A stretch of DNA of 64,000 bases from positions 12,223 to 76,222 of the forward strand of contig JAUXSB010000033.1 in the NCBI GenBank assembly GCA_030681595.1. Reading direction: 5' to 3'. This DNA is from Candidatus Omnitrophota bacterium (GTDB lineage Bacteria > Omnitrophota > Gorgyraeia > Ghiorseimicrobiales > Ghiorseimicrobiaceae). The notes beneath the pieces were generated by a model, which saw only the letters and a program-made list of their open reading frames with translations, was not told where the DNA came from and made no database searches. Positions 30,001 through 54,000 of this stretch are shown here, in pieces. Position numbers and translations under genes: made by a program. Every line of letters begins with the position of its first letter. Positions within the stretch are counted from its first letter, which is position 1.

Positions 30001-33000
30001 GCCCAGTTAATAAGAAAACGCGAGATAATTTTTGTTGATTTATCCAATGCCTCTAAATTACTCTTGGCTTTTTCTCCCTTAGCTGCCTCCAGCGCAATAT
30101 TAACAAACCTAAGCGTCTTAATTAACCTGCGCTTGTATAGTATTCTTGTAAGAGCAGGCACTTTTTTATAAAGAGCGTGGCTGCCGCTTAAGATAAGTTC
30201 TAAAATGAAATTCCTGTATTTAATCATCGCGGCGTCTATGGATATATCTTTCTTGTTGTGGCCCAAGTTATAAAGGGCATTCTCTACCGTCCCAAGCGGA
30301 ACAGCGTCTCCGTAGTATAATCCTATAAAGAATAAGACGCGGCGCGCACGCACGATATCAACCCTTGAGCCTACGCCCCTTAAATTACTATTTTCGGCTT
30401 CTTTTATTAATCTTTGCAGAGGCGCAAAATTCCTATCTTCAAGATTTGTAAATATGTTAATAATTTTGGTTATGCTAGCAATATCGGGAATGCTTATCCC
30501 TGCCGGTTTTAACAATTTATTTAAACTACCGTCCCGATAGGACTTTCTTAGCTTATCTACCGAAGAGATGATATTTTCAAATTCTATATGTTTATCTTGC
30601 GAAAGAGGCGAATTAGCGGAACTTTCAGATAATCCCTTTAAAGATATTTCATAATTTAATACTAAATTCAACCATTTGTTGTATTCTTTCGCCTGTTTAA
30701 TCAGTAAAAGTAAATCATTCTCTGTCTGAGTCATTTCTTCAAAAAGTCCTTCAAGTCCGTTAATAATAAAGTAATCTTCCAAAACTCTAAAGATCCATTT
30801 ATTTTTGCCGGATATTTCGGCTATCGCACCCAGGATATTACTTCCCTTGCTATCCTTATCATACAAACCAATAACCTCATCTAACTGATACAGGCCGTCA
30901 GCATCTTTAAACTCCATCATTTTTCCGCTTAATCCAAACAGCGGATCTTCCTTATCCTCAAGCCGCTCCATAATTCTTTCTATGCGCGCGACCAGATAAC
31001 CGAAGAAGATATAGCGCTCTTTCTTTGTTATTATTTTCTTAACGAGCCTAACGATTTCACTTCGCTGTACTTCTGATAGAGCACCGATCACCCCTGATAA
31101 ACCTTCAGAAACCATACTGTTAAATATATCGTCTAATTCAATATATGGCCCTGCCTCTTCTTCGTTAAGCTCAATCCGCCTTAAAATATCTCTAAGCCCA
31201 TCAACATTTTTCTCCAAAATGCTCTCTTTTGACGGCATTGCCCTTACCTTAACTTGCGCTAAAGATAAAAGTTCTTTTGCGTAATCTAATTTACGGATAT
31301 CCTTCGCTTTAACTTTGCCCTCTTTCTTTTTCTTCTTATTTATCTCTTGCAGCTTCTTTTCAACTATCCCTTCTAATACTTCTGCAATAGCCGGCCAGTC
31401 TGCCGCAAGAACACCAAAAGCCTCTAAAAAGGCATGATATATATTTTCATCCTTTATATTATCAACCGATATCTCCAATAAAATTACCCATTCAGCTTTA
31501 GATTCCACCGCGTTAAGCAAATTCGTAAGATACGCTGGATAAGAGGCTATAATTTCCCTTATCGCTTCTTTCGCTTCTTCCCTAAGCCTGCTTGCATCCT
31601 CTGCCTCTTTTGTCTGCGCCACGCGAAGTGCGGATAAGGCCAGATTGTTGTACATGCTGCCTTCTTTGACCCCCAGCTTCCTTGCTAATCTCCAGTGCTC
31701 AAGGCATTTTTCATCCTCCAAGCCAAAATATGCATTTCCTAAGAGAAACTGCAGATCCGCGCTTTTGGTATTTATTTTTTCTGCTTTTAAAAGCTCAACT
31801 TTTGCTTCCTCATATCTCTTTAAGCTGATAAGGCATCTCGCCAAATAAATTAAAACATCAAATTCACTGGTTTCTTTATCGCCATATTTATTCTTTATAA
31901 ATATCCCAAACTGCTCTAATGCCTTATCAAACTTACCCCAGTTATAATACACACGGCTCAACATGTTATATAGGAAAGATTCATCGGGATAAAAGCTGAT
32001 TACTTCAAGAAGCGTCCGTTCTGCCTCTTCGTATTCTTGCTTGTTATAATGCAGGACAGCCCTGCTGTCTGCCAGCTTTATCTTGAGATCATCTATTAAA
32101 CCTGTTAAATCCGGTGTTAATGTTTTGGCTTTCTCCAAGGCTATTTTAAAAAGCTCGATAGATAACTCATAGCTTTCTTTGAGATAAAAATATTCCCCCA
32201 TTTTGCCTATAAAAACAGGGATGAGGCGCGCATCTTTAGCAACTATTTGTTCTTGGATGATTACTTTTTCCACAGCATCTGTCAGCGGATCGCCGTTCTT
32301 AAGTGCAGACTTTATTTTAGCGGCAAACCCTGCTATCATCCGCTCCATAGCCGCCTTCTTCTGGTAGTCGATACCTAACATTTTTTCTGCCTGCTTTTTA
32401 GCGTTAGTGTCCATCGGCCCGCCAGAATGACATTGTCGGGCTGGCGAGGCGGCAAGAAATTCCTTGACGCTGATAAATTTATCAATGATATCTTGAGTAA
32501 TTTTAAGATGTAAATTTACTTCTTTGGTATAAAAGAATATGCTAGACACGCCCTTCTTCAATAATTCCATCCTTATCCAAGTCACAACATCTGCCTGAAA
32601 CTCAGATAATTCGCCAAAAAGCATTTTTTCTTCATATTTTTTAAGATTGCCCCTAATGAGGTTAGCTTCTTTTAGGATATCTACCCTATTATATTTCTGA
32701 AGGAGAAATTCTTTTATAGGCACATAACCGTATTTAGGTAAATTATAGGTATCAACCAATATCCTATCCTTAAGGTTGGGATCAAACTGCATACGCGTAG
32801 GGCAGATCAACGACTGGGTATTATATTTATCCGTGGCGCGAGTCCAGACATGCGCGCGTTTTTGACCATCATAAATAAAATATCCGCCTTCAATAATAAA
32901 ATTGATTTCGGGGCTGCCGCCACCTATTATGCCGGATATTTCAGATAACGCAGGAGTAAGTATATTGTTAAAAGCAGCGCATATCATTCCCTGCTCTAAA

Positions 33001-36000
33001 ATCAATTGGTCAGCCTTACTTTTATAGACTCCTCTTAAGTTTTCGCTGACTACGCCCCAAATATCCCGTCCGTATTTGGTAAGAAATTTTTTTATAATTA
33101 AAATGGCCCTTGGCTTAGCGCGCCTTCCTATCGCCTTATTCACAAGGGGCGAAGCTGATTTTCCTGTAAGGATATTCTCTATTTGCGTAAACAGGGCATC
33201 TACCTTCTCGAAATTTATTTCGCTATTATTACTTAATAAATCCCTTGCTATGCCTAAATTAACATAATAATCCTGCGGAGATTTCTTGATCAAATAATGG
33301 ATATAGTTCAAAAATCCTTGGTCGCCTTTAAGCAGCCTCCTAAATGAAACCGCCGCCTTCTCAAGGATATCTTTACTTCTGTTATCATTTTTATATCTAT
33401 TTATGCTCTTAAGAATTAGCTGCTTCTTTACCAGCCTTTCCTTTAATAATTTCCAAAGTTCTGTAAAGGCGAATACATCCTCTTTGGCGCGAGCAAATTT
33501 AGCCAAGACATCAATGGCATATCGCTGATAAAAACTTTCTTTGGGGATAAATGCGCAAAGTGCCTTTATTAATTTCTTATATTCATCTTCACTTACTATG
33601 ATATTATTTTCTCTTATAGATTTTATTAAATCATGAGCCTCATCTAATAGTTTCTTTCTTTCGCGTAGCGAGACAATTAGGGGATTTATATCATTTAATT
33701 CCCGTGTTAGGCCAAAAATCTTTTTGGTTATTTCAGATTTTTGGTCTGGAATGTTGTTAGATCCATAATAAACATCTTCGATATGCAAACGAATTTCGTT
33801 GCCTTCTTCGATAACCCTAATTTTATAAGGCGGCATTATTTCGCCTTTTAAACGCGCCTCAAAATAAGTGCGCCGCAAAACACTCCGATAAATCGCCCAC
33901 AGTTCTTTGAAAGTTTTTTCATTTAAGCTCGCATCATTGGGATAATACTCTAGCAGCCACTGGCGTACCTTGATATCGCACTGAGGTTCCCATCCGGGCT
34001 TATGGTCGGCATAATAAACAGTTGCCTTTTCTATATTTTTCCCGGCTAACTTTTCCTCTAATCCCTTTATAATTAGTTTTCTTAAATGCCGCTTTACGCC
34101 GATAAACTGAAAATCAATAGGAGAAGAGCCGCCTTTAGCATTAACGTAAAAAATTAGAGCGTAAAGAGAGACGGTGCCCACCGGCTTTATCCCGTTAGAG
34201 AGCGATTGTACCCCACCAGCCACGGAAGGTAATACAATCTCTTTATGCAGCTTCTCTCTAACGGGACACGCCCGCCAGAACGACGTAGTCGGGCTGGCCT
34301 GTCCGCCAAAGTATTGATGGCGGAGAGAGGTCAACCATCTGTTTAAATCCTCCTTACGCCCTAATTTTAATAGAACATAATTATATGAAATTACATCCGG
34401 CCCGGCGCGCAGTTTACCTGATTCAACCAAAGCTCTACCCCTCTGCCAAGCAATGATACCTACGGCGACATAACCTAGCGGCCCGCCTGACTCCCGCCCG
34501 ACCCGCCAGACCGAAGTCGGGCTGGACGACATTCTGTCGGGCGCGGTCATTCGGGCAGGCGAAGCAGAAATGCCTGAATTAGTTTTAAGCGCTAAAGCTG
34601 TCTTTAAAACTTTCTTTTGGTTTTCTTTTTCAAAACCTCTATACAGGAAGAAATCTTTTATATACCACGCTACCATTTCATAATCTGCTGTGCCTTCTGT
34701 ATCCCTAAAAGACCCATCAATAGCACTTGTCAACAGCTTAATATAATCTTGGCCTGGCCAATGCTTACTCAATACGTAAACTAATATTTGAGTGGATGAA
34801 TTAAATAGTTTTCCTATTTTTTCATCGAGGTCATTAACTGCCTTTTCATCTCTAGGCCAGGCAAGCTTTTTTAACATATCCCTGCTATGTAGATAATAAT
34901 CTATTGCCTTACCCCAAACCCCTCTCTTTTGATAGATCTCTCCCAGATATGCTAAAATCTGGGCGGTCATCCTCTTATCGCCGACTCTTTCTCCTCCGGG
35001 AGCTACTATATATAAACTTTCCATAAACGCTTCTTCCGCCTTATCTAACTTATTTCTCTTCAATTCAAGGATGCCTCTGTTAAAATAGCTTTTTGCAAGG
35101 CCTATCCTATCCCAGCCATGTTTTCTCAATTTAAGGCTCAGGTCAGAATATATTTCTGCCGTATCATAATCTGTGAGGTTTGTGAAATGCGCCGCAAGAC
35201 GGTTATAGACCTTTGCCAGCATACGATTATCGCCTATTATTTTAAATATGTCTTCGCTTATCTTTAAGCTCCTTTCGTAGTCTTCTCTTGCCTGCTCGCT
35301 CTGCCCTAATCTATCGTATAAGTCTCCCCTGCGGAAATAGCTGTTTGCCAACCCCTCTAAGTTGACGACATCTCTGATATCTTTTGAATGAATGGTAAGT
35401 TTTTTTCTTATATCTATTGCTTTATTAAAGGCTCTCTCGGCTTTATCAAACCAGTAATGCCTTTTCATCACCCTTTCCTTCTCTCCCTTTACCATATAGA
35501 CAACGCCTAAATAATGCTGAGAAAGGACAAGGCCAAAATTTGCCTCTATATAAATAAGGTTGAGGTCTGTGCGGCTGATTATACTTTCCCAGAAATAATT
35601 ACTTAACATCAGGTAATCTTCCGCTTCATCTAACCTCTCTATATCCAGATAAAAACTGCCAAGTGTACGTAGTGTCTTAGCAATCTCTAACATATCTCTA
35701 ATATCTATTGTTATCGAGTGATAACGGACTATTGAATTTAAGGCATCTTTTACCGCAGAGCCCTGAAGCTTAGACTCCACATCAGCAATATTAATTGCCA
35801 ATTCCAAACTATCCAGCAGCCAACTTTCCGCCCCTTTAATCTCCTTTGCGTCTATTATGTTCCCCCTCAGCCACTCAATGATGCCTTTATACTTCTTGTT
35901 AGTACGCTCAAGCCTGCGGAATCTATGCCTCTGAGCAATCTCAAGAGCCCCTGTAAATTTTATGTTTTCTTCACCCATGATACCCATAATATTTACATCT

Positions 36001-39000
36001 GCCTCGTCCAGATATCCGGTACCCATCAATAGGCGCGCCTCTTTAAGCAGATTTTCGCAGATTGGGCGTTCATCAGGGTTATATTTCGCCTTGCGGAAGT
36101 CTATTAGCAGGTTACGAATATCATTTCTGTATAAATTTATCGCTTTTTTCAAATGCCATATCGCCGTATAAAGTTCAGCCAGGCCGGCGCTGGCAAGATA
36201 AAACACAAACCACTCCTTATTCCTGTGGCTTAGCGTGCGGCTCTCTATAAAATATTTTTTCGCCTCTTCCCAACTGCCTTGCCTCCATAAGCTCAGTGCT
36301 CGAGTATAATATGACATAGAGGAAACCGGCTCGTTAGCTTCAAATTTTTTCCTGCTAAAAGCCTTAAGCCTCTCTGCTACCACATGCCATCTTTGCTGCC
36401 ATGCCCATAAGGCGCACTGGATATTTAATAACACCTCTTCTGTGTCTATACCCTGCTTTTTTAGTTTATCTGACAATTTACTAAACCACTCATTAACTAT
36501 CCTGTGGTTTATAGCATCAATATTTTCTCTAGTGGTATCCGTAATCATTTTTTTTATCCATTCCAGTGCCTGTTTGGCGGGATGCGCCAAAAGGAAACCT
36601 ATGCCTAAGGCGACTGCGCACATTAAGGTAATCGCCTCCTTGTGGTCAAGATGCATGTGCAGAGACCCTGCTATCTCTATCAACCTATCAAAAGATACAA
36701 CATAATGTAATCCCGCCACCAACAAAGACGTTAAAACTATATGGGCGCCGTATTCAGTAATTATGCCTGCTGCATAATCGACTACGCGCATGAACAGCCC
36801 CTTTGCCCGATGAGAACCTGTTTTCTCTTCATCTCTATGTTTTTCTAACGCATCCTCGAGACCTGATTCATAGAAGAATAATAAATCCTCTTTATATTCC
36901 TTACTCAGCTCCTGACGCATCCTTTCTGCGCTCTTTACAATTTTACCTCCTTCTTTATGCAAGAATATATGCAAAGAGGTATTCTTTTCCCTGACTATAT
37001 CTTTATTCCTTATGATTTCAGAAAAGATGCTGTCTTTGCCGCTATAGCCAATAGCCAGTAAATGATAATTAGACATAATGTTCTTTAATAGGCACGTCTT
37101 GGCAACAGATAACCCCTCACCCTCCATTCTATAGGCATTGTATATTGAATCAGGGTTAGTAAGTGTGCCGTTAAGCTTAAATATCAATATCTTTTCGCCT
37201 CTTGCCTGGGCAAAACCGCTCTCTTCAACCTCTTTATTAAATTTCTCTATTTCCTCATCTGTTGCGTAAACCTTAAAGTCTCCGACTTCTTCTATTGCAT
37301 CTCTAAAAATACCAACCCCTTCCACTACTTCTTCTTTGTATGTCACTACCTGCTTGACTTCGCTTAACCCTTTATCTTTTAACGCCTGCTCAAGAAGCGT
37401 ATGGATATTGGTAGTAAAGAATAGGTTCATTTCTTTCCTTTTAGCTCTTTTGGCTAAATCAAGATATAAATCGCCTGGTTTTATCAGCCGCCTGAAGCGG
37501 GTTTTAAAATTATCCGAGTCAAAAAGCTCAGTCAATCCCATAATCCCCCTGCCAAAAGCGGTTATAAGCAGGCTATAGAAAACATCCGGCGGTAGATCCT
37601 TAGGACATTCAATCCCCATTTCAGTTGACACCAACTTCAAAAATCCTCTGTAAGTAAGCATGCCGCCTCCGCCTGCGCCTAAGAGAACGCCCATCTTACT
37701 TTGCTCGTTAAGCCCTCTTAATCCGTTACCGCCTGCCTTATTCAGCTTGTTATTGAATAACCGCTTAAGTGGCGAGCCCACGGAGCTAGAATCACCGTCT
37801 TCCTCTTCGCCGGATAAGTTCTTTAAGATGCCCTCAATTTTTCCAGCTTCTTTCTCGCCGAATAAATCCGTTAATATGGCTTCTTCTGGTGTTATTAAAT
37901 CCGGGAGGAACTTGCGGGCGTTCCGCCTTAATTCTCGTAAAATATCCACTGTCTTGCCAAAGGCATCTTTAATCACCAAGTCATCTTCTTCTAAATAATT
38001 CGGTGAATATTTGTCTTCGGCAAAATAATACAGAGCTTCTTCTGCCACGCCTTTATCTAATTCCATAAGCTTGCGGATAGAAACTTCAAATTTAGCATTA
38101 AAATGTATTAAGAAAAGATAAATCCTTACAAGGCTAAAAATTGCTGCCCTCTTATACTGTTTTACATGCCTAAATAAAATATCTTCAAGATATTCCTGTT
38201 TAGAAAGTTCTTCTTTGGCGCCTTTCTTTAATAATGCCTTTTGTTTGGGTTCATACAACCTCTGATACACTCTTGCGATTACCTCTATCAAATTAGAATC
38301 TAGCCCACCGGATAAAGCCGATACCTTATCAAGTATAAGCCTAATAATATTAAATAATTCCTTTACAGGATAAATAGAGACAAGCTGTTCAATGATTTTA
38401 TATCTCTCTACTGTTATATATTTTTCCACTGCCCGCTCAATAGAACTTAAGGTTGCCAAATAAGCGGATTCAAAGTCGGGATTTGTTGTCAGCGCCCCAA
38501 AGAATGTCCTCCAGAATAAATCCTTACCTAAAGCTAAAGAGTGTCTTTCTAAGAATCTTCTGAAATCGCTTAATTGCTCCCTGCTAAACTGCGCCTTGTG
38601 TTTCCCTAAGAATTTATTTATCTCTTCTTTGGACACGGGGCTAGCGGATTCCGCTTTAGATGAAGAATATAAAAGATTAACCGTTACCCTATATTCATCC
38701 GATATATAGCCTTTACCGGGGATTAAGCCTAGAATTTGCTCTATATATTCTTTTCTAGTTAATTTAGTAGAAGCCTCTTTAATCTCTCTTATGCTCTTGG
38801 AGACAACACCTACTTTATCCCTTGTAATGTTCTCTTTATAGCCGCCATCATACATGTATAATTTACCGCCCGTTCCTTCGCCTTTTCTTGTTTTTCCCCA
38901 TCTTTCTTCTTCCTTTGCAAACGCATAAACAAATTTTATAAAGCCGGCTGGCCCAAAATCAATTCTGCGCGCGGCATAATTTAAGCGTATCATCTTATTA

Positions 39001-42000
39001 ATGTCTAACCACTTAATTAAGACGCTCAGATCGCCCAATTCGTGAATTTCACGAAGCGCATTATAAGCTTCTCGATATTGCTTAGCATAATCTCTAGATT
39101 TTCCTTTGCTTAAGTCATTGGCGGTATCTAAGAATGCTTTTTCTAAATTATCTTCTTTCCCCCTAAATTTATCTATTGTCTTGGCTAAATCAAAGGTTTT
39201 TTCTTTCTTTATCACCGCGCCCATAAAACCATAAAAGAGGCGCACCGCCGGCCAATATTTCTCAAGCACCCTTAACTCTTTAACATTACCTAAGTCCAAT
39301 ACATAGAGGATATTGCTTATGCGCTGATTTGTAAGCGTGCCTATTCCTCTCGCCGCGTAATAAATAAAATCTAAGATAGCGGCGGCCTTAAAATAACGGT
39401 TTACATTTATTAGGTATTCATTATCAATAATAAGCGTTTCAGAGTTTTCGCCGCTTAAATAAACGATAAACCCTATCCTGTTTAAATATTCTATCAGTTG
39501 GCTTTCGCTGAATTTGGATATATTTTTTTCGTCAGTTATAGCCTTAAGCATATCTTTGATAAACTGCCGGCTCAACTGGGCAAGCCTTCGGGAAGCAGTA
39601 AAATCAAAACTCTTAATTCGCCCGCCTGATGCCTTATAAATTGTAAAAAATAGCTCAAGCACCTTTAACGTCTCTTTATCCGTTAGATTTACAAAGACGT
39701 CCATAGCATGATCCATCTGAACAGTCTCCATAAATTCCTTAAAATCACTATCATTTCTTATAGCTATATCTAACACGGTGTATTTTGCGTCAATTCTGGT
39801 TCCGGAAACATCAGAAGAAAATCTTTTTTTGCGGTGTTGGGTAATAGAAAATTTCCTTAAGTATTCCAAATCGAGCATCTTAGTCATAAATTCTGCCGCA
39901 GAGTTATTAAAGAAACTGCCGTCTCCATAAGAGAGGATATCCGCGGAATTAACTATTATCAAAAACTTAAGTAGCATTTGTCTTTCATCTTCGCTATCGA
40001 ATTTATCCAAGGCCTTTAAAACCGTATTCTTTGGTCGTTCGCCGCCTCCGATTCCGCCAAACTCCGGATGATACTTAATAATAAATACCGCCCACTCAAT
40101 TACCTGTTTATCGGTAATACCAAACCTGCCTAAAACCGCCGGGATAATCTTTGCTCCTCTGTCCTCATGGGCTCCGCCTTTAATTATATCCCCGATATCA
40201 TGCAGGAAAGTAATGGCATTGATGATAAAGTAAATTTCGGATGTATTTTTCCCCTGCTTTTTCATAAACCGGACAATATATTCCAAGGCATCAGAGAGCA
40301 TGTCGAAATATTTCTTATCTATATTAAGCATGCCCTGCCTTAAATTTTTAAATTCCGCATAGTCTCTCCTGAAAAATATCTCCGTAAATTTATTCAATTT
40401 AATAGAATGTTCTAATATCGTAACTTTTGGTTCTTTTGTTTTTACCCTCTCCAGGAGCTTTAGGTAGGATAGCGCCTTAAACAGAATTCCTTCCTTAGCC
40501 TTTGCGTTTTTATATAGTTTTTCTAATTCCTCACCTGAATTTAAAGTTTCAAGTGCTTTCTTAAGTAAAGATATGGCATGCGGGTCAGAATCAAAATCAG
40601 GTAGTCGCTCTTCTTGCGCAGATTTATCTTTTAGCCTGAATTTATTAGTTATCTCGTGAATACCGCCATCGCCTGAATCAATTACGCGATGGACACGGCT
40701 TTCACAGACAAGCGTAATGATAAGATTTATATCTTCTTCCTCAATATCAAGTTTTTCTAAAAGCGGCAATAAAAGCTGTTTAGCGCTCTCTGCATCATCT
40801 CCCAAGAGAATCCTCGAGTAATCTCTCAACAGGCCGCTTAAGAAAAGGATTTTCTTAATCATTTCATCTTTGCCATGCTGGCCTATATCACTAAACCGGT
40901 ATTGAAGCCTTCTTAGTAAGTCACGATTTAGATTATCCTCTCCGGGAAGTTTGCGCTGGTTAAAATACTCATACCAGCTGTCTTCATCTACAAGGCTCCC
41001 ATAATGCTCAAGGAAGCTCAACTGATTAGCGGATTCATTAACCAAATCCCAGCGGCTATTTTGCGCCCACCAAAAATCTGAATGGTCGGTGATGAAATCC
41101 AAAGCGCTGATATTTGTGTTCTTTATAACCCAGTCCCATAATTCTCTGACATTGCCTCTCTTCCAAAATATCTTAAAGTCGTTTATTTCTGTATCGGGAA
41201 TTAATTCGATTCTCGCCAAGAGCGCGTTCAACAAGCTTAAACGAATCTTAGAATGTTCGCTGTCCTTCGGCTCATGCCTCATATATTGCGTGAATGCCTG
41301 AATTTTTTCGTCATATCTGGCTGCCCTTAAAGCATGAAAATAAACAGTCGCGGCCTTGGCGTATTCGCCTCTCTTGAAAAATTCATCCGCCTCGCCAAGC
41401 AAGAATTTCATCAATGCCTCTAAATCAACTGTTTCTGTTTTATCGCCGCTCGCCGCCTTTATATAACGCACCTCATCTACGATATTGCCTTTTACCTTAC
41501 TCTTAGGCTTGCGCGGGTCTTTCTCTATTTTAAATTCCTTATGGATAGCCGGATACTGCCCTTTATTCTGCCTCAAAATCACATCCAAGAAAATCTTAAA
41601 GTTCTCGTTATTTGTAAGCGGGCTGGCGGATTCTCGGGTTGAGACTGCGGCAATAATCGCAGCGCCTATGCCCGAGCCATCATGAGTCAAAGTTAACTTA
41701 ATCCTGCCTGCCTTTTCAAAACCAAATATTTCTACGAATGCTTCTTGCATCCGCGCGGCAAAACCGGGGTATTTTTCAAAAAGTGAACCATCTACGGCAA
41801 CCGTATGCCTCTTGGATAAACGCGGGTCGATTTTGGTAAGCGCGCCTGCTAACGCGGCAGTTGCTATACGCGCCGCACGGATAGAAATAATCTTACAGAT
41901 TTCTTGTATCGCCTTTCTTTCTTCAAAAGTTATGCCTTTAATCTTAAGTTTACTTAGCACTGTATGCGCGCCCCAGAGATTAGAGGAGCCATCACTTTCT

Positions 42001-45000
42001 ATCTTTGCCATATCTTCTGTGCTTAAGCTGTGAATCTTTCTAAGCCGAGACGGAATCTTGCCGCCAAACAACAGGCCATTAGAAACAAAATCTAGTAAAA
42101 TTAAACGGGCAAGTTCGCCTAAATATTTACCGGAAACCATCTTCTCTTCTAAATGCGAACCGCGGTTTTCTGACTGTTTATCTAACATCTCATCATATTT
42201 AGTCTTGGACAGACTCTTATTAAAATTCCCTGACTCCATATTGATAATCATAGATTTACCGGAATATGGACCGATTTTTTTCTTAATCTTGGATGCCTTC
42301 ATCCTTGCGGACATATTTGTGCCTGTGCCTAGGATTAATGCTATATCGCAACGCAAATCAAGATAAGCCTTTGCTACCTGTGTACCCGTAGTATCATTAT
42401 CCAAAGAAACAATCTTAACATTATTAACGTTCTGACGTTTTAATGCCGCCTCAAGTAAAACAACCACGTCTTTGCCTTTGACGCCTTTTGCCGTAAAGCC
42501 TTTACTCCAACTCATAAGAACACCTTGGTCAATAGCTGTCTGATGAACGGCAAAACTAAAGGTATAACCTAAGGAATATTCGCCCGAATAACCATGCTTC
42601 CTTAAGAAGCTCTTTAGGAACTTAGCTAAGGCGTCAAATAAAATATTTCCTGTCTGGGTAATATCTCTCTTCTTGAGCCTGTATTTCTCAACTATAATTT
42701 CCGGGCCGGAAGAATCGCCTTTTAACTCCACCATCAGAACGCGGAAGTTCGTTGCGCCTAAATCAAGCGCCAAAAATAGGCCTTTTTCTTTACCTGTGGG
42801 ATTATCGACATATGTTGGAAGCATCTTTAATGAGCTTTCTTCGCCTCGCAGGCCTTTTTCCATCTCCTTATGGAACGCCCGCATAATATCCCTTATGCCT
42901 TTAGGCGTTAAACCAAAAACGCTTCTTAAATTATTTAACTCGACTTCTAATACATTGTTCTTTAATCCAAGCGGGCTGGCGGATTTTCCCCGGCCTGTTT
43001 TCAGATGCTGCCTTGCTTTATTGAGTAAAAACTCATCTGTTCGTTCTAATAAATTGTACTCATCGGTATCAAATGCATCCGCGGCATCTATGGCGACCAC
43101 AGGCCCATAAGAAGAAACCAGCATATTAGGCTCTGCTGTAATTCCATACTTTTCCAGCTGTTGCATAATAAAAGGGGCTTGCAGATTATATCCAGTTAAA
43201 TACTTACCGCCTACAGCCTGCATTGCGTAATTAAGCCTGCCGGATTCATCTATAAAAAGACCATAAAATTCCGGATAAATGCCGATCATGCTAAGTAATT
43301 GGGCCGCATAAATTTCTCTTTCCGCATATTCATAGCTCTGACGTTGCGAAATAACCTTTACGACTACGGGAAAATTCTTTTGTTCAATAAAGCTTAGGTA
43401 TACGCCATCGTTACGCATCCCGCCGCAAGAGTCATCGGATTCAAGCCGAACCGATAAAGTATCAGCCAAAGAAATAGGCCTGTCCATTAAATCGCTAATT
43501 CCGATAATATCTGCCTGCAGATCTTCCGTACGCCATTGATGCATAACCCAAAACTTCTTGGGGTCTTCTGCTCCGGTTACTTCTAAATGCCGAGTATTAA
43601 AAATATACCTACCTTGACCCGGCCATTTTGTATTAATTTCGATACCGCTTTTTTCTACGCCAAATTCAACCAGGCGCTGGATAATTCCGGAGGAGCTGAC
43701 GCGGACAGCAAGCATGTTTAAAAAATCTTCTTTACGTTGTGCGGAAGCTTCATCTTTGAATCTAAGCGGCGAGGAATTGTTTTGGAGGGAATCGGATACG
43801 GCGGAAGCGAAAAGTGTATTATTAGGATAGGCTTGCCTAAGATATTCTAGGTAAGTTTTACTTTCTCTGCCAAAGTTATTATGCCTGAGTGAGGCGGCGA
43901 AAATCTTGCTCAAAATCGCCCCTGCCTGGCCGTCTCCTAAAATATCTTCTATTTCAGGGTCTGTCAGAGAGCGTAGGAATCTTTGCAATGCCTTTTCATC
44001 CCCTGTCTTTTCTATCCTTTCATAAAGCGCGCCCAAATAACGCTCAAAATATCCGTTGCCTAGCTTACGCCAGCCGGAAATTGTCAGGGCAATAACAACG
44101 CCTTTTAACCTGTTGTTTTTGTCTAAAAATCTCTCTCCTCTTTCATGATTTAAGAGCTCATAAGCTAATTTCTCGGCATTCACGAGGCGGCGCGCTTCAT
44201 ATGCCGACTTCTTCTCGTACTTTCTTACTGACTCTATAATATCTTCAATGCCTAAGGAGCCGTTTTTCAGCCAATGATACGGCCTGAAGGTTTCGCTGGA
44301 GGCACTGATGATGTCGCAGACCATAAATATCTCAAGCAAATAGCGCACCTGCCTCTGGTCATGTTTTGACATCTCCTTGTAAATATGGTCATTGAATATA
44401 TCGCAAGGCTTATGATGATAAAGTATAATCAGCCGAACTTTATCCGAAATCATAATGCCTTTATCTATCAAGCGCGTTATTGAATAATGCGGATGCATTA
44501 TCCTTATATCTTCTAATTCTTCTTCAGCAAGGTCTTCGGGCGAATTAACCAGATAAATAAGTTCTTCTTCTGACTTGCCTATATCGTGCAGTATCGCCGC
44601 CCTTTCCAATATTTCCTTTGCTTCATCATTTAAGCCCCGCAGCTTTGCCGCAAGCCGCACAAGCCAATGCACATTCTTTACATGCATCCGGGTATGGAAA
44701 ATAGTAGAAGGATATAAATCAAGCAACTTTTCCCGTTCAGTCCCGCTCAGGGGGCTGGCGGATTCAGGCTTAGCATTAAATCTATAAATATAGCTATTAT
44801 CTGGAATATCCGGGTAATGCGGCTCATTAGATTGATGAACATCTCTAATTTTTAAGCTGCTATTCTTAAATGCGTCTGTCAATGCTTGTTCCATTTCTTC
44901 ATTTATCAGATTTATATCATCAAATCCTTCTGAACTTGGCGGCCTTATCCAGCTTGTCCAGATAAACCCGGCTTTGCTAGACTTAAGCCTTGCCAACCAA

Positions 45001-48000
45001 CTAAACGCCTCTTTATAGCCGCGGAACGATATTTGCGACATTCCTAAAGGATCTGTTATTCCAAATGCAATGATATGGGTGAATTTATTATTTCTTACTT
45101 CTTCTCTGGTTTCGGCTAAATTAATATCCCCCGCTATAACCCTAAGCGCACCACCCTCTAATCTCTTAATTATTCCGCGATATTGGCCGATATGCTCTTT
45201 CAACATCTTTGCCTCTATTGAATTAGGCACTAAAACAGTAACATCTACACCGTATAACAGCGCGATTAAGGCAAATGAGTAATAGTATCCGGCTGAATAA
45301 ACCTCCAATAAACTCTCGCCCTTTCTAAAATCTAATAAGCTATATGCGGCCTCTCCTAAGCGCAATCTCTCCTTATCCGTAAGCCTCTCTACGCCAAAAG
45401 CGCTTAAGAAACCGCTTTGGAAAGCGGAAAATGCCTCAATATGCTTATGCTCAACCCTGCCGTATTGCAGAAAAAGCCTCTTTAGTTCACTTTCGATAAT
45501 TTCTTTTCGTAATGCCGATAACCTATCTTCCTCTTGCTCTTTTTTCTGCAATGCCTCGATTTCTTTTAGTTTTTTATTCAGCAGTTTTACTGCTTTTGAA
45601 GCAGGACTCATATAGCGAATAGCTGTCCTGATTTTATCCAAGGCGTTTTCCCGTAAAGCTATTGTAGATATATCTATTTCTTTTAATATTGCGTTAGCTT
45701 CCTCTAAATCAGCCTTTTCGTTTTTCGCTTCTGCAAAAATCCTTAATTCTTGGTGCTCCCTATCTATCTCTCTAGCCAATTGTATTTTCTTATCCTGTAA
45801 TATCTTTTCCATCGGGGCTAATTGATAATACTCCCTTAAATTCTTATCCATCCCGTTTATGCGCCCAAGTAACGCGTTTACTTCTTCTATGGATAAATCT
45901 TTTTCTAATTCCGGAGTGATTTCATTAACCAGCGCAAGTAAGGCTATTTCTTTTTCCGCTAAATCTTTTGAGCGCGACGCTTCATCTCTTAATTTATTAA
46001 TTTCTTTATCATCTACGGTTATTGAAAGTATCTCGGATTCGATAAGCCCTAATGCCTCTTTATACTGGCCTTCATAATAAAATTCCCGCGCGATGTCTAA
46101 GGCATCTTTAGCCTGCCTTAACAGCGTATTTCTTAAATTATAGCCTTCCCTTATCGCATTAAGACGCTGCGAAATCTCCGAAGTTAGATTCTCAAGCCAA
46201 ATCAATTCATTTATTGCATTTGGATTATCCTCTGAAATGCTATTTTCGTATTCTTTAATTTTCGTAAGCGCAATACCTAAAGAAACCTGGCTACCTGTCC
46301 TGACAAGTTGCTCTAATGTCTTCATGAATTCTTGGCGCCTGCTATCTATAGGAGAAGAATTCATCCCGCCGATAATTTTATTTATAATATTTATGTCGGA
46401 TTCTAGCTCTTCATGATGAGTTTTGTACTTTAAAATTACCGCGCCGTTAAAGTTTCTCTGTAGCAGATTAGCAATTGTCAACTCCGCAACGCTTATCATC
46501 TCTGGATTGGAAAGGTTCCCCGGAAGATAAACTGCCTTAATAGGCACTGTTTTATCCAACCATTTCCAGAATTCTTCCATGTTATGCCCGCCTTCTAATA
46601 GATGCTCTACATTTAGACTAAAGCCTATATTTTCCCGGTTATGCAGAAAATCAAAAAGGTTAGATATGTCGAGCCAGCTGTGCACTGGTAGATTCTCGAT
46701 ATTGAGTTTGACCTTTTTTTCTTCCAATAGAGAAATAACGCTTTGTATCATGCCGAAAAATGCGTATCTGGCATATTCTGACTTTACTATTCCGGGCAGG
46801 TGAACGTTTACGGCCCTGGCGTTAATGCTGGCGCCAAATTCTATAGCTTTCAACCATAATGATATATTCTTGAAATCCTTAAAAATGTCGATATTGTTCG
46901 CGTGGACAAAAATAGTCCTATCGGAGGCTTCCTGATTAAACCAGCCCCTCCAAGATTCCAATATATCATCCGGAGTAAAACCATCAAAATGAATCACAAA
47001 TACCTTTAAAGCCTCGGGAGTAAATTTATAAGTATCTTCGATTTTTTCATGCGGCCTGTTTTTCCTTCCTAGCAAAATACCCCTGTAATCATCCGGCGTC
47101 TTTATTGGGCTTGAGGCATATTTTCTCTGCACGCGCATGATAAAACCGCCTGTGCTTATAAACGGAATCCTTAAATCGTGTATGACCTGCCTATACTGTT
47201 CTTGGGTTAATAATATCGGGGAGGAGGAAACCGGCAATTCAATAGTGAATTCCGCGCCCATGCCGAATTCGCTCTTGACGCTCATATCCCCGCCTAATAT
47301 ATTCAGGATTTTCTTAGCGCGGTAAAGGGTAAGCGATCCGGCAAATGTTTTGGTAGAAAACAACGGCATAAAAATATAAAGGATATCTTCGGCAGTTATG
47401 CCCGCGCCATTATCGCTTATGGAAATTTTGATTCTATCTCTCAACTTAGAAACGCGTATCTCTATCTTATTTGCCTTTGCCTCAAGGGCATTCTTAAACA
47501 TATGTAAGATAATCGTCCCCAAATCTTCGCTAACCATAACCTTTACCTCTTCCTTCAATTCCGAAACATAGCCAATCGACGCCCCAAAAGACTTTACAAT
47601 TTCTTGCAAGAAGCTATCAATCTTAACTTCCTCTATATTTTTCTTAATTGCAGACTCATCAATTTTTAACGAAGAAAGCACATTTGATACTATGAATGTT
47701 ATGTTTCCGTGATCCCGGAACATACCCGCTATTAACTCTTGGGAATATCGAATAAATTCGTTATTATTGGTTTCATTTACCTTCTCGGCCAAATTGTTTA
47801 ACGATTCAAGAATCTGTTTCTCAATAGCCTCAACATACTTTGCTACCGAAAATAAAGCATCGTCTAATTCCTTCTGGGTATCGCGGTTAATACCTTTATG
47901 CAGCTTGAAATACCTTTCTACTTTTCCCTCTAAATAAATAATCCTTTCCAACAATTCACCTACAATATCTTTAGTATTAAACTCTTCAGCTTTCTTCAGT

Positions 48001-51000
48001 ATGCGCCGCGCGAAACCACCCAGACTCGTGAAAGGATTACGCGTATGATGGTGCAAACCATCAAGAACGCGCCGGCCGGCAAGGATATACCGGGTTTTCT
48101 CCGCTTCTTTCCTTACTTCCTCATTGCCATCCTCAAGGGATATCCTCAAAAACCATGACGCCTTCTTATTGCTGATAGCGCGTAAATCTATCGCCATCTG
48201 CCTCCTTATCTCTGGGTCTTGCGACCTTATTAATTCAAGTATTAAATCCCCGGCTAATTTATGAGCGGGATAATAATAAGCAAGTATGACTATAGCCGAA
48301 TGTTTTTCTAGCTGGTCTTTGGTCAGATACCTGTCTTTCTGCTTATGTAATAATTCGTTAATATTCTCCTCGCTACGCGCTTTTACTATCAACCTTACTA
48401 AATCATCAGGCCCTTCGGACGCCCATTTATAATCCTCCTCTTTATTTCCCTTATGGCTAAAATATATAGTAAATTCAAAAAATCCTTCGTTCTCTTCCGG
48501 GATATCCGTCGGAATAATTTGCAGCTCGATTCTAAAGATATTACCCTTTTCATATATATGTTGCTTGTAACTTATGCCCGGTTTCCTGCCATACACCTTC
48601 CTATTGTCCTTGTAGATATTCACTATTTCTATATTTTCCCTGACAACTTTTCTACTTCTATGCGGCCGCACGCCTACCTCAATATAGCCATCACTAATAA
48701 ATCCAAGAAACTCCTCCATGCTTACGTCTCTGTCGAATTTTACCGTAGCATAAGCAAAGAAAGCATCGCCTACTATTACCTCATTCGTATCTTCCCTATC
48801 ATGAGCAATATCCCAGGCACCGACTATTTTCGGTAACTCGTTAGCATTATTGTTCTTAATCGGCGAAGAAACTTTGCCAACAGATATTTTCGCTGTAACT
48901 CCCTGCTGCTCTTCGACTGATATATTATTACCCCTTAGAGAGCGATTGTATCCCGCCAGCCACGCCCCGTTAGAAAGTGACGAATACCCACCACCAGCCA
49001 CGGAAGGTAAGATATCGCCTTTAAAAATTGTCTTTCTAACGGGGCACGGAAGGTAATACAATCTCTTTATGTAGCTTCTCTCTAAAGGGTTATTTAAATT
49101 TAACGGACTGGAGTTAGCCTTTGAATTTATCTTTATAGCAGCGGGCTTGCGACTTTCCCAATATATCTCGGATAAGCCCAAAAGCCACCAATACCTCTTC
49201 TTATAAACTCTATGGGAAGTAAACCCGGCTGAATGTAAAGCTTTACCAACAAAAGTGCGCTTGAGTAAATTAGCGTCTATAATAAGCCTTTGCTTAAGAG
49301 CGCGTTTTAAAAATTTCTTTGTCCTATCCTCTCTTATCATCATGCGAATCGCAATATCATCACGCAGCCTTGCGAATAATAATTTTAGGGCGCAAGCAAC
49401 CAAATTAAGCCCTTTAGGATAGTTCTCGGTAGTATCCGATGCCACTTCCAAGACAACCTCTTTATTTTTCAACATGAAATCCATTCCTATTTGCGCAAAG
49501 AGATTACTGTTTTCGTCAACGATGTCAATAACTACGCCCTTTCCTGATAATATGCCTTTCCCTAATAAAGAATAAACCTGCAGTTGGTACATCTTCTGGT
49601 CGTTAGCCTTAAGCCACTGGCGGTTTAGGCCTTCTGATATTTCTTTTATTTGCTTAGCAATAGGCGTGAGTTCTTTTCCGGCATTATCCTTTTCGTAAAC
49701 AGAAATTATGCTCTCTAACAACTGCCCCTGCTCGTCTTTGCTAAGCTTCATTATATCCGGCGCAAATATCTTAATTATGCCGGTCTCGGGGTCAATGTAC
49801 GCTGTATCACGCCCAATTCGTAAATCCTCCCTCTCGGCCTTATAAAATTCGGGAATAAGCGCTTCTTTCTCTAATTTATCGTTCGGTATCGGCGAACTCA
49901 TTTTTCTATCTTTTACCTGCCTGAATTGTTCCGGGGCCGTAAAACGCATCTTGGTGCTAAAGTAAGTGCCAAAATAACCAAAAGGTATTTCTATATTCAA
50001 CAAATTAATGACTTCATAAAACCTCTCTACTAAAGATGCCGCTTCCCTAATCTGATGCGTGCTTGAGACACCCTCAAAAATCAGCACTTTTTTACGGCTT
50101 ATAATAAAGCTGGAAATAATTTTGGCCAACTTCTTTGTTGAGACTACCCAATCCCCTTCAATATGTATTACTACATCCCTCTTTTCTGCCCTTAATCCTA
50201 ATCCGCCTCTCTCCATATAAGAGGACAACTCTGTTTTTCCAACACCCTGGTCACCATCTATGACTAAAATTACTTTCTTATCGCTTCTCTCGATAAAAGA
50301 ACGAATCTTCCTAATTCCTTTGTCTACCGGCATCATAACCCCGGATTTTCTCTTTGGCAGCCGGGAAATCTGTTCTCGTAAGAATATAGCGTTTCTTAAT
50401 CTATTAATATGCTCTTCTTTGTAAAGCGGCGAGTTGGAGGGGCCTTTGCCGATTTGAACAACCCATTCTTTTTCGCTCATAAGAAGAAGGGACGTAAAAG
50501 GTAGGACAGGCGTAGCATAAGTATCACCTTTGGAATACACGGTATCGATAATCACTCCTTTAACGCTGTCAGAACCAGGATTGCATATACATAAGAGTAT
50601 CTTTGAAATTTTCTTTTCTTTCGCTAACCAATTCACAACCTTAGCTGCGGAAATTTCACCAATATACACTTTTCCCTGTTTTTTCTCTCCCCTTGCGCCC
50701 AAGAAAGGTCCTTCGTATTTAAAACCTTTCTTGAATTCAGAAACGGTAATGAGTGTGGCTTTGACTTCTCGAACAAAAACAGCAGAACCTGGATTGTTCA
50801 AAAGAATATATTCCATCTGATCAATACTCTGTTGGGGCTCTAATTCAAAAATAAGAATTGGGAATTTGGTTAATAATATAGGGGAGGAGACGATGACTGA
50901 TGGCTGATGACCTGGTAACTTTTCTTCCACCGGCGAACTGCTTAATGCCTCTTCAGCGAAAGATATTTTTTCCCGGATTGAGGAAAGGCTTGCTTCTGTT

Positions 51001-54000
51001 TCTTTTCTTTGTTCGAATAGGCTGATCTTCAGGCCGGTTTGGGACCCAATCAAGTCGGATTCCTGTTGGCGAATGTCACTGAGTTTAGCTTCTAGTTTAG
51101 CTTCCTTGGCTTTGAGCCAAGCGATAATTTTTTTCCCTTCCCACACCGCCCTACCAAAATATAAATCAGCTAAAATTGCAATATAAAAGTCGGTTATCTG
51201 CTCATCAGTAAAACCTAATTTCTTTAAATCTCTAACTGCTTTAAGGCGGAGATCAAAGTTTGGATCAACTAATTTCTTAATTAATCTCGATACTCGAGTT
51301 ATTCTAAAAGAAATCCATATTCCCAACAGCTCTGCGATTGCGATACTAATATACGAATGCAAGGTTCTTACCAGCGCACCGGGAAAACCGGAAGACCCAT
51401 TCTTTCCTGCAAGTTTTGAGCTATGCGGATTAGAAGTTGAGTTATTATCGATATTATTCTTCTTATCGGGAGACTTGCTTGCCATTGAGGCAAAAACATT
51501 AAGGGTTAATAAAAACATCCAGACGAGATTAAATAGATTGCTGGTAGCAGCATAAGAATAATATATGGAATTTGCCGTCAAAGCGGATATATAAGTTAAT
51601 AAACCTATTTTTGGCCTTGACATAAAAAATCTTTCCGCGAAGAAAAATCCTTTTGGCATCATTTTTCTAAAAAACTCATAGCGGCCGTAGATAAATCCAG
51701 CTATGACTGCCGTGGCACTAAAAAGATGTATAGGCATCATATTGAATACCAATACAAACATTATCCCCGGTTTATAAAAATTTATTTCTTTATTAAATAA
51801 CTTGGCGGCAACCAAACTTGCTATTCCGCTTACGGCAAATGCTAATAGAGCATTAACAGCACTTTTGGTTAGAGCATAACCAATTAGAACATAGTCAAAA
51901 GGATAACCGCCAAGGCTATATGCAATAGTTAAAACCGCAAGTATCCCTAATACAATCTTCGTTTTTGTTGATATTTCTTGCGTCGTTATGTTATCATCTT
52001 GCGTCTTTTTCGCCATGGCGGGCCTGCCCGACTTATTTGTGGCGGGTGAGCTATTAGAGATAGTCTTATTAGCGATAATGAACTTCACAAAATTAGAAAG
52101 GATTTTTAATTGCGTATTCTCTGAAAGCTCAAAGAAATAAGGGTGGAGGATTAATGTTTCGCTAGAAATAAAACGGTTAAATGCGGCAGTATAGGGCAGA
52201 TTGGTTTTGAAATCTTTAATTAATTCGTATCCTTCGGTAAGGATTTTAACATAGAAGTAAAAATCAGGCGGCGCGCGGATTTCCTGACTTAATAAATGGG
52301 CTTGTTTCGTTAATATTTCCTGCCATTTAAGATAAAGCTTGCCTTCTGCCAAGGTTACTTTAATATCTTTGCCTAAGCTTATCTTCACAAATGCTATGAA
52401 GCCGCTTCCCTCATTAGAAATTATTCGTTTATGCTCCGCTTCGAGAACAGGCAAATTTGAAAACGGTAAACCAAGCGGGCTGGCGGATTGGCCCAATGCC
52501 TCAGCAGTAATAAAGTCCCGCCTTTGCCTCTTAGCAGCAGATGACAAGTCGTTTTTGTCCACCGGCGAGCTGGATGAAGATGGATACGAGGCATTATCTT
52601 TAGGTATTACTCTGGACGCCTCAATGGTTTTTAATATCCTATTCCCAACGATAATATTAACCAACAACACACCCCACGATACAAACACTATATCTCTTAT
52701 ACCCGTCGGCATCGCGATGTTTTCGGTCATAAAAAATAGTATAGCCCCCAAAGAAGCCGCAGACGCAATCAGTGCTGCCGTGCCCAATTTCAGCATCACA
52801 TCAACGATGGCTTCTAATTTCCGCACCCTATCACCTAACGCCGCCGGAGAGTTAGATTTTAATTCCTCTTCGCTTTGATTATCTTTTGTATATTTTACGG
52901 TGCTGTTTGCTTTTATCGCTTTTATTGTCTCTAGTGTATGCTTTACAAACGAAACCATGGCGGCAATAAACACTACCGACTCCGGTATGCCAAGCGAAAG
53001 AGGGCTGGCGGATTGGCCCAGGAAATCAAATGTCTTCCTGCCAACCAATTCCCAGATAAACTGTGACTTGGATTCCTTAAAACCTTTATAATCAACAACG
53101 TTATCAACTATAAGCATAATGCTCCTGTAAAGGGGGATACCGTATTTACCGGATGGCGCCTCATTCATGACATGCCTAAACAGACCCCCATAATCTTCAT
53201 AATCAAGATTAAACTCGGAGATATTTCCTTTTGCAATCACCGGAATAATAATATAACCTTCCTTTGAATCCGCCTGCTTAGCCAAAGCGGATAATCTTAC
53301 GATAAGCTCCTCAGAGTTCATTGTTACATCTAACTCAAAATAAGGAGTAATTACTTTGGGTAAGAGATTACGGGTTGCTTGGGCAAACTCTTTAGGATGG
53401 CTGACCGCAACAAGAGAGCTTTTACAATAAGGATTACGGTGCTCATCTAGTATTTGAATAACTTCGCCTGCCTGCTGCCTAATCTTTTCTTCTTGCTCTG
53501 GAGTAATAGGCGAAGAATTTCCTTGAATAGAATCGAACGGATTATAATATCCCTTGCCTTCTTTTTCCCACTGCCTAATATCATTCGTGATATTTTGAAT
53601 AATCGGAGAAGATAAACTAAAATCTTTTTCGCCTACCTTTTTATTAATGCCATAATATTTTATATTGATCCCTCCCTTATTATCTACAGTTACGATTTTT
53701 CTAAGCAAAGAGGTGCTTGGTTTTTCAAAATTTTGTTCAGGAATCCCATTTTGATCTTGTAAGTATTTCTGAATATCTTCTACTTTCCATCTTCTTAAAG
53801 GAGCTGTATCTTTCGGTGTGGGAGTCATTGGATCGTCAGAATAAACAATCATAATTATCCAATCTTTCCCTCTAATATCCTTAAATGAACTTTCCATAAA
53901 ATCTTTCTCTTTTTGCTTATCTTCATCTTCATGCCATCCATAAATATGAACCACTTTCGTTTTGCCTGTTTTACTATTGTAAGCTATTGTTGCTAAACAA

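Follow-up and report, generated by a model that had tools for sequence, protein, structure and literature searches.

Giant genes have been described in Omnitrophota as 'Archaeovorins' (West-Roberts et al. 2023, bioRxiv 10.1101/2023.11.21.568195) and as a 'multi-enzyme metabolic cluster' class (bioRxiv 10.64898/2026.06.07.730766). In these giants, a single open reading frame (ORF) of tens of kilobases encodes many unrelated enzyme domains, such as methyltransferases, HATPase_c, HD, and glycoside hydrolase domains, along with TPR/HEAT repeats and a few transmembrane (TM) segments. Hexokinase domains inside Omnitrophota giants have already been reported, with 9 copies in one giant (bioRxiv 10.64898/2026.06.07.730766). 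S8 and C39 peptidase domains have also been reported in these giants, and cleavage is an explicit open question in the giant-gene literature. According to the 2023 paper, the lack of information on cleavage points prevented the splitting of giants (bioRxiv 10.1101/2023.11.21.568195). A junction or cleavage motif is reported in neither giant-gene paper, and a search of the literature for the pentapeptides gave no relevant match. The window analysed in this work, which is 64,000 nucleotides of contig JAUXSB010000033.1 from a Candidatus Omnitrophota bacterium, is similar to both descriptions. We have identified in this window a hexokinase module that lies between two SASPL pentapeptides, and a short motif, x[AS]SP[LIVMA], that recurs at module ends along the same chain and in a subset of Omnitrophota giants. 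The coordinates of the features are shown in Table 1.

Minus-strand frame 2 has no stop codon across the whole window (21,332 codons) and is open at both window ends. Each of the five other frames has between 714 and 2191 stops. Codon i (0-based) of the giant frame begins at window position 63998-3i. The GC content of the window is about 40% and the strand skew is uniform. No conventional genes were found in the window, where the only ORFs besides the giant frame are three of 155-179 amino acids (aa) on the plus strand, and no Rfam families were matched. At least 15 distinct Pfam families are found along the giant chain, including methyltransferases, GFO_IDH, five HD domains, HATPase_c, and hexokinase. 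Further Pfam matches on the chain are SIR2_2, HEAT/TPR, HD_4, Peptidase_M48, GH77 4-alpha-glucanotransferase, PHP, and HTH. Eight TM segments were obtained in the chain by crude prediction, clustered at aa 1992-4385 with one more at aa 9122, and the hexokinase falls in a long TM-free stretch between predicted TM segments. An uninterrupted ORF of more than 10,000 codons, in which many enzyme families are tiled with repeat scaffolds and TM segments, is what characterises giant proteins, and judged from its sequence the frame is a multi-enzyme giant gene of Omnitrophota type. The nearest relatives of its hexokinase and of domain X (described below) are found in Omnitrophota metagenome-assembled genomes (MAGs), and the window itself carries no phylogenetic marker. 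Searches of the protein database, the genomes of GTDB, and the metagenomes of JGI with the hexokinase as probe returned no near-identical protein or locus.

The initial annotation had described a full hexokinase, of the size of a free-standing enzyme, framed by two identical 13-mers. Both copies of the 13-mer AATCCGCCAGCCC are present on the minus strand, at 42973-42985 where they encode part of KSASPL before the module and at 41620-41632 where they encode part of ESASPL after it. The identity of the two flanking words reaches 17 nucleotides (AATCCGCCAGCCCGCTT, 42969-42985 and 41616-41632). The first two bases of the 13-mer complete the codon before the pentapeptide, and a translation from its own coordinates is therefore out of frame; the in-frame SASPL pentapeptides are located at 42983-42969 (after Lys) and 41630-41616 (after Glu). 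Between the two pentapeptides there are 446 residues, and the distance from the first Ser to the first Ser is 451 codons (1353 nucleotides). The description of the module as a full hexokinase is borne out, since both lobes are matched end to end above the Pfam gathering scores, human hexokinase-2 was matched in the PDB search at E 2e-153, and the two signatures that had been quoted, LALDLGATNFRV and GSGIGAAIIAAV, are both found in the module. The nucleotide- and sugar-binding and catalytic columns are invariant in the alignment of the window module with 12 bacterial homologues (D114, G116, N119, K201, N236-D237-T238, G259-N263, N288, E290, E320-K321, D438-G439-S440, and D475-G478). These columns cover the LDLGGTN phosphate loop, NDT(V/T)GT with the catalytic Asp, GTGxN, NxExG, EKMxSG, and DGSG..GAA. 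One conservative change was identified in the window hexokinase, which has LDLGATN instead of LDLGGTN. The flanked module is thus a full-length and probably active hexokinase.

The size of the module is similar to that of its free-standing bacterial homologues (438-458 aa, 48-54% identity), which are its closest database relatives by identity and come from Aminicenantes, Acidobacteriota, and metagenomes. The same two-lobed family includes the tandem hexokinases of vertebrates, the halves of which are 37-39% identical to the window module. Unlike these enzymes, the window module lies in frame between unrelated modules and has no start or stop of its own. The initiator Met of the free-standing homologues aligns about 1-6 residues past the upstream SASPL, and their stops align from 1 residue before to about 15 residues past the start of the downstream ESASPL. 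The structure of the module with 40-residue flanks was predicted with AlphaFold2 (AF2). A confident fold was obtained at query residues 44-489, with a mean predicted local distance difference test (pLDDT) score of 78.8 and with most 10-residue blocks of 51-490 at 80-97. This core, together with the match to the solved human hexokinase-2, supports a hexokinase fold. The upstream SASPL occupies residues 41-45, where the coil at 36-43 has pLDDT below 50 and the first helix begins at the Pro. The downstream SASPL occupies residues 492-496 inside a stretch with pLDDT below 50 (491-506) that follows the last helix (476-489). The hexokinase domain does not extend across the linkers in this model, since the confident fold is confined to 44-489 and both SASPL lie in or at the edge of the low-pLDDT stretches. 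The flanking modules (260 aa upstream and 989 aa downstream of the hexokinase) have no PDB sequence relatives and no Pfam match. We hold with high confidence that the hexokinase is complete, that its catalytic residues are conserved, that it forms an in-frame part of a giant polypeptide with a length of at least 21,332 aa, and that its ends are marked by SASPL.

The two 13-mers were read in the initial annotation as a frame of the hexokinase module. Their presence and identity stand, but they are not specific to the hexokinase, and they belong to a peptide-level motif of dozens of junctions and not to a DNA feature. The exact 13-mer occurs 6 times in the window (8 times with at most one mismatch) compared to 0.08 expected. 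SASPL occurs 9 times in the window chain (0.02 expected), [SAT][AS]SP[LIVMA] occurs 30 times (0.34 expected), and the core x[AS]SP[LIVMA] occurs 53 times, where about 2 are expected and the maximum in 200 shuffles is 9. The 52 intervals between motifs have a median of 291 aa and a mean of 395 aa. Among them, 33 are 140-700 aa long, 7 are longer than 900 aa, and 12 are short doublets.

The motif is located at the ends of modules and avoids Pfam domains. None of the 53 sites in the window lies inside a Pfam match, where 6.7 are expected (P=7e-4). The independent giants exhibit the same avoidance (0/22 and 0/20 sites inside domains), and the overall count for the window and five giant fragments is 0/95. 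Many sites are 0-20 residues from the ends of full-length family models. The offsets of the motif to the domain ends are +1 for HATPase_c, +5 for Hexokinase_2, -10 for Hexokinase_1, and -11 for GFO_IDH, the match of which begins at profile position 2, 11 aa past a motif. The HATPase_c domain ends at aa 5590 (profile 109/111) just before SSSPI, and the full-length NCBIfam histidine-kinase models (PrsK 679/679, PnpS 390/390, and WalK 594/594) end 1-2 residues before the same SSSPI. The HD module at aa 6412-6740 and its paralogue with 26% identity at aa 11965-12335 both have a motif at both ends. One internal repeat family begins exactly at three motif sites, and the short homologues of domain X that were called with their own Met begin where the window has S[AS]SPL. 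The motif-positive giants also exhibit this arrangement. Their GNAT modules are framed by motifs at 192 and 221 aa. Their GT5, AlaDh, AA_kinase, and AKR domains begin at profile position 1-2, 13-22 aa past a motif (position 1 for both GT5 at 20 aa and AlaDh_PNT_N at 22 aa), while GGDEF and HATPase_c end 3-9 aa before one (9 aa for a GGDEF of 161/161). We are highly confident that x[AS]SP[LIVMA] is a short linear motif specific to a clade, and that it lies at the natural termini of the modules in linkers that are short and apparently unstructured.

A substitution scan at the core shows that only Ser at the invariant Ser position and only Pro at the Pro position are enriched (53 vs 2.0 for each). 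The [AS]SP tripeptide occurs at 58 sites, where the next residue is aliphatic in 53, and Ala or Ser precedes the invariant Ser-Pro. The one-step mutational neighbours of the motif are at background in the window and likewise in the other giants, where the motif itself occurs 80 times compared to 3.9 expected. Thr in place of the invariant Ser is also at background (2 vs 1.1 expected). The flanks are polar and carry little information (at most 0.3 bits at positions -12 to -2). All six Ser codons, from both the AGY and TCN families, are used for the invariant Ser across the 53 sites. The exclusive tolerance of Ser and Pro, the lack of enrichment among the neighbours, and the use of all six Ser codons together show that selection acts on the peptide.

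Three candidates for the origin of the motif were rejected. A conserved DNA or RNA word was rejected since the motif is in one frame only, uses all six Ser codons, is written with different codons elsewhere, and has no Rfam match. Internal translation starts past the motif were rejected since there are no stops and no Met enrichment past the motif, and the first Met is 29 residues after the upstream SASPL. A decaying fusion scar was rejected since the one-step variants are at background and the same hexokinase module is present in related giants without the motif. Codon choice at the motif was observed to be biased. TCG, the rarest Ser codon of the ORF (about 11% of Ser codons), is found at 24 of the 53 invariant Ser compared to 5.6 expected. 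Ala before the invariant Ser is encoded by GCC in 16 of 23 cases compared to 5.9 expected, with GCA and GCG almost absent. A translational pause is one possibility for this bias.

The nearest hexokinase loci belong to Candidatus Omnitrophota MAGs and are embedded in giants, with 57-65% identity to the window module. These hexokinases lie in ORFs of up to 7,082 aa that are open to both ends of the available locus sequence. The giants with the nearest hexokinase modules (including L001 and L002) have no motif at all. They have in common with the window only the hexokinase (aa 7017-7458) and the recurrent 140-aa domain (domain X), and the neighbouring modules are unrelated. The giant-embedded hexokinases are grouped as sister to the free-standing bacterial clade in a crude neighbour-joining (NJ) tree. 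Given the restriction of what is shared to the hexokinase and the grouping in the NJ tree, the hexokinase looks like a cassette that entered the giants in a single capture and was afterwards shuffled between them, while the motif was either added in one lineage or lost from the others. A related observation was made at locus L005 (Ga0172364_10006031, ORF aa 1299-2632), where a 1,333-aa protein has a hexokinase domain directly before its stop with 43-45% identity to that of the window. This protein is an intermediate-sized fusion with the hexokinase at the C-terminus.

Domain X was used as a probe independent of the hexokinase in a full HMMER scan, which retrieved 134 proteins, nearly all of which are partial Omnitrophota giants. 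The motif marks only a subset of these giants. Motif-positive proteins, which were picked by motif density, include P0213 (20 vs 0.74 expected), P0142 (16 vs 0.78), and P0253 (9 vs 0.89), and P0225, P0135, P0251, and P0155 are likewise enriched. In the remaining domain-X proteins and the hexokinase-bearing relatives, the motif is at background and no alternative tripeptide is enriched. A motif universal to giants was rejected since no enrichment is seen in the majority of the 134 domain-X proteins or in any of the relatives that bear a hexokinase. On a 195-kb contig (L007, JGI Ga0376277_0000553), giants of 47,181 aa and 6,713 aa are motif-enriched (4 vs 0.27 and 9 vs 0.89), and the eight ordinary neighbour genes on the same contig (3,248 aa) have 0 motifs. 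The two giant genes of this contig were also observed to be closely adjacent (9850-10150), where the 47,181-aa gene stops 56 nucleotides before the 6,713-aa gene. The called Met of the latter is inside a protein-kinase-like domain (IRELKPGN), and a hinge-like YLVTNYFQGTSLEERI is open just upstream in the same frame. Both may be one ORF of about 53,900 aa that is interrupted either by a real split, by a frameshift, or by an error in sequencing.

We infer that the motif is recognised by an enzyme that acts in trans or in cis, because it holds about 13-14 bits, has an invariant Ser-Pro, and is found only in the inter-module linkers of giants. An endoproteolytic cut at x[AS]SP[LIVMA] would free the hexokinase and the other modules as near-native proteins, which would make the giant a cellular polyprotein. 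The cut would probably be just after the aliphatic residue, because serine proteases of the subtilisin and elastase types have a P4-P1 preference similar to the order small-small-Pro-aliphatic, and giants are reported to contain S8 domains. Subtilases typically cleave AAPL and AAPF substrates (PMC5177683). The substrates of subtilases and elastases (A-A-P-[LFV]) are similar to [AS]-S-P-[LIVMA] by resemblance only, and they differ in that the motif has an invariant Ser at P3 and the window has no S8 domain. Processing is ranked first among the explanations because near-native enzymes would result, the literature suspects cleavage, and the motif resembles AAPL and AAPF. We tentatively propose that the motif is a site for the endoproteolytic release of modules, although we would put this at somewhat below an even chance. 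A broader and slightly more doubtful proposal is that a subset of Omnitrophota swapped operons for polyproteins, in which one ORF of tens of thousands of codons would be translated once and its product cut at x[AS]SP[LIVMA] by a lineage-specific protease. Dozens of near-native enzymes of metabolism and signalling, including the hexokinase, would then be set free with fixed stoichiometry.

Several points weigh against processing. No S8 or S1 protease domain was found within the 21,332 aa of the window, while the rest of the gene lies outside it, and the only protease-like elements in the window are one M48-like HExxH and the three copies of domain X, which are degenerate. The motif is missing, with no substitute, from most of the related Omnitrophota giants, among them the closest hexokinase bearers, and processing at such a site is therefore no general requirement of giants. 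Access of a protease may be limited because the linkers are very short, with 0-9 aa between the upstream domain and the motif. Some domain boundaries have no motif (the 7 intervals longer than 900 aa) and some linkers have two. Selection by motif density makes the enrichment in the other motif-positive proteins partly circular, which does not apply to the avoidance of domains. Classical subtilisins are not ideally suited to the beta-branched Ile and Val at the putative P1, and these residues fit elastase-like enzymes better than subtilisin-like ones.

Two elements of the window touch on the question of a protease. Domain X has about 140 aa and no Pfam match, and 165 copies were found in the window and the 134 proteins, with up to 5 per protein. 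Its signature is TVY[LI]-H-PYFF...LEILY-HELISH-I.KG..DE..A, in which three His and the Glu are 85-93% conserved, and this suggests a metal site with HExxxH spacing. A fold search gave a best E of 0.04, which is non-significant, with the minimal metallopeptidases selecase, jannalysin, and abylysin as the top matches. The three window copies are degenerate and have lost part of the signature. Domain X is also found in the giant ORFs L001 (aa 1181-1307) and L002 (aa 3219-3323), where the copy in L002 is 10 aa upstream of the hexokinase. The Peptidase_M48-like segment has HEVFH, the only HExxH in 21,332 aa, and is a candidate in-chain protease. Domain X copy 3 and a TASPL junction directly precede it, and a methyltransferase domain is in the same motif-bounded segment. 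A perfect 24-nucleotide repeat of 3.4 units was observed in domain X copy 3 (23065-23146, minus strand, aa 13618-13645), which encodes GPPDFIRA three times followed by GPPEF. A SecM-like arrest was considered because the repeat contains IRAGP, the same residues with which the SecM arrest peptide ends, but the repeat is probably simple slippage.

The motif could instead be an uncleaved structural linker, where a Ser-Pro kink or a helix N-cap would end one fold and begin the next so that adjacent modules do not disturb each other, maybe with a translational pause that aids co-translational folding, and the hexokinase would work in the intact chain. Helices classically start with Ser as N-cap and Pro at N1, and in the AF2 model the Pro of SASPL is exactly where the first hexokinase helix begins. 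At the invariant Ser, the rare TCG codon is in excess and is followed by a Pro codon, which agrees with a pause. The related giants that manage without the motif are consistent with a dispensable refinement. However, passive linkers normally vary, whereas the Ser and Pro are invariant here and even Thr or Ala is at background. In the models, the motif before domain X and the downstream SASPL are coil, and no helix begins at them. The version with pausing is further weakened by the sites of L007, which have no uniform codon choice, and by the ribosomal tunnel, which would still hold the last 30-40 residues of the upstream domain during a pause at the junction. We consider a structural linker unlikely, but worth keeping in view.

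A modification site is less probable still. The Ser before Pro would be phosphorylated by a proline-directed Ser/Thr kinase or O-glycosylated, which would regulate or protect the linkers. [ST]-P is the minimal motif of proline-directed kinases, a Pkinase domain is found in two motif-positive giants (P0251 and P0253), the motif-bearing giants are rich in glycosyltransferases, and the sites are in exposed linkers and sometimes in doublets. However, a search of the window's 21,332 aa for Pkinase domains was negative at E<=0.01. Thr does not replace Ser beyond background, though most such kinases and O-glycosyltransferases accept Thr. Known bacterial sequons do not typically have a small residue ahead of Ser and a strictly aliphatic one behind Pro.

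It is very improbable that the junction is one of DNA, where the 17-mers would be direct repeats from or for cassette insertion or module shuffling and the peptide would be a by-product. A perfect 17-nucleotide direct repeat is present on both sides of the hexokinase, and TCC GCC AGC is used at 6 of the 9 SASPL sites (P=7e-11 from codon usage alone). Seven SASP sites at aa 1988-8450 form a local codon subfamily with TCC GCC/T AGC in common, and the hexokinase behaves as a shuffled unit among unrelated neighbours, with the giant-embedded copies clustered in the tree. However, all 8 near-matches to the 13-mer are in one reading frame, and the 53 sites are heterogeneous in codons, with AGY and TCN Ser codons that have no silent interconversion. 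The independent motif-positive genome (L007) uses quite different codons, never TCC GCC AGC, and makes no uniform choice. The copies of the shuffled module in L001 and L002 have no motif at their edges, so shuffling does not need the motif. By inspection, the 17-mer has no inverted-repeat structure, and it has no Rfam match. A frame-independent DNA site at cassette ends (attC-like or repeat-bounded) does not agree with one frame, heterogeneous codons, and a module that lacks the site in relatives. The tandem repeats found in the window are trivial only. The identical 13-mers and 17-mers are a local codon subfamily of the peptide motif, where the peptide and not the DNA is the conserved unit, and a better explanation for the identity of the DNA at these sites is that short-patch conversion or duplication of junctions acted on top of the peptide constraint.

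Translational recoding at Ser-Pro, by which 2A/StopGo-type peptide-bond skipping would let the modules leave the ribosome separately without a protease, is hardly credible, since only the X-Pro bond, the position at module boundaries, and the unusual codon bias speak for it, while the conserved upstream residues that nascent-chain mechanisms need are missing and we know of no bacterial precedent.

Table 1. Features of the 64,000-nucleotide window with their positions, strands, and supporting evidence.
Feature	Positions	Strand	Evidence or remark
Giant multi-enzyme ORF	1..64000	-	No stop in 21,332 codons; many Pfam domains
Domain X copy 1, begins at SSSPL motif	60957..61403	-	
Exact 13-mer, GQSASPLSL at aa 1988, directly before TM-like hydrophobic segment	58024..58036	-	
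Exact 13-mer, GQSASPLSL at aa 3662, directly before TM-like hydrophobic segment	53002..53014	-	
Exact 13-mer, SASPL at aa 3837, begins domain X copy 2	52477..52489	-	
Domain X copy 2	52062-52487	-	
SSSPI junction, immediately past the end of the histidine-kinase ATPase domain	47214..47228	-	Pfam, NCBIfam
Exact 13-mer, SASPL at aa 6412, begins HD-domain module that ends at NSSPL (43778-43764)	44752..44764	-	
Upstream junction, 17-mer AATCCGCCAGCCCGCTT, codons TCC GCC AGC CCG CTT = SASPL (42983-42969), Lys before	42969..42985	-	
Hexokinase module, 446 aa between pentapeptides	41631..42968	-	Pfam, PDB, alignment, AF2
Hexokinase_1 (PF00349), profile 2-201/201	42363..42938	-	Pfam E 4e-60, 203.6 bits vs cut-off 24.3
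Hexokinase_2 (PF03727), profile 2-242/242	41643..42344	-	Pfam E 7e-71, 238.9 bits vs cut-off 24
Downstream junction, identical 17-mer, SASPL 41630-41616, Glu before	41616..41632	-	
SASPV at aa 8450, next junction downstream of hexokinase, closes unannotated 989-aa segment	38634..38648	-	
Domain X copy 3	22884-23369	-	
Peptidase_M48-like segment, HEVFH (aa 13754-13854)	22437..22739	-	Only HExxH in 21,332 aa

Two of the sites in Table 1 lie in a 68-aa repeat with 57% identity (aa 1981-2048 and 3655-3720), where GQSASPLSL is followed by a hydrophobic TM-like helix.

The pentapeptide is the first concrete and testable candidate for cut points in Omnitrophota giants. It offers a target for proteomics, namely semi-specific peptides that end in ...SP[LIVMA] or begin right after it, and it gives a rational way of splitting the giants for structure prediction and expression. 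The hexokinase module between two SASPL is a good test case for the excision of a module. The motif-positive and motif-negative giants form a natural experiment in which the enzyme that recognises the motif could be sought. Should cleavage be confirmed, these giants would be a bacterial counterpart of viral polyprotein expression, used for core metabolism. Should it be ruled out, the motif would remain an unusually strict linker code in need of explanation.

The arrangement can be compared with two known systems in which short peptides mark the ends of functional units. Viral polyproteins have short protease-recognition motifs at the boundaries of mature proteins, which are read by picornavirus 3C, potyvirus NIa, and coronavirus Mpro. 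The window is similar to them in having one long product and a short peptide that recurs where functional units end, with variable flanks and in linkers that are exposed. It differs in being bacterial and in carrying dozens of metabolic enzymes, and the cognate protease and the cleavage are only proposed here. Polymorphic toxins have the boundary motifs VENN (CdiA) and PxxxxDPxGL (Rhs), where the Rhs motif is also a cleavage site. The similarity is that a short peptide is located where the homology of relatives ends and a swappable module begins. However, the toxin motif occurs once per protein before one C-terminal toxin, whereas the window has its 53 sites between housekeeping-type enzymes, and the relatives of the window shuffle the same module without the motif. 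Taken together with the described Omnitrophota giants, the giant-gene context and the embedded hexokinase are known, and the junction motif, its restriction to a clade, and its coincidence with native termini are reported in neither of the two giant-gene papers.

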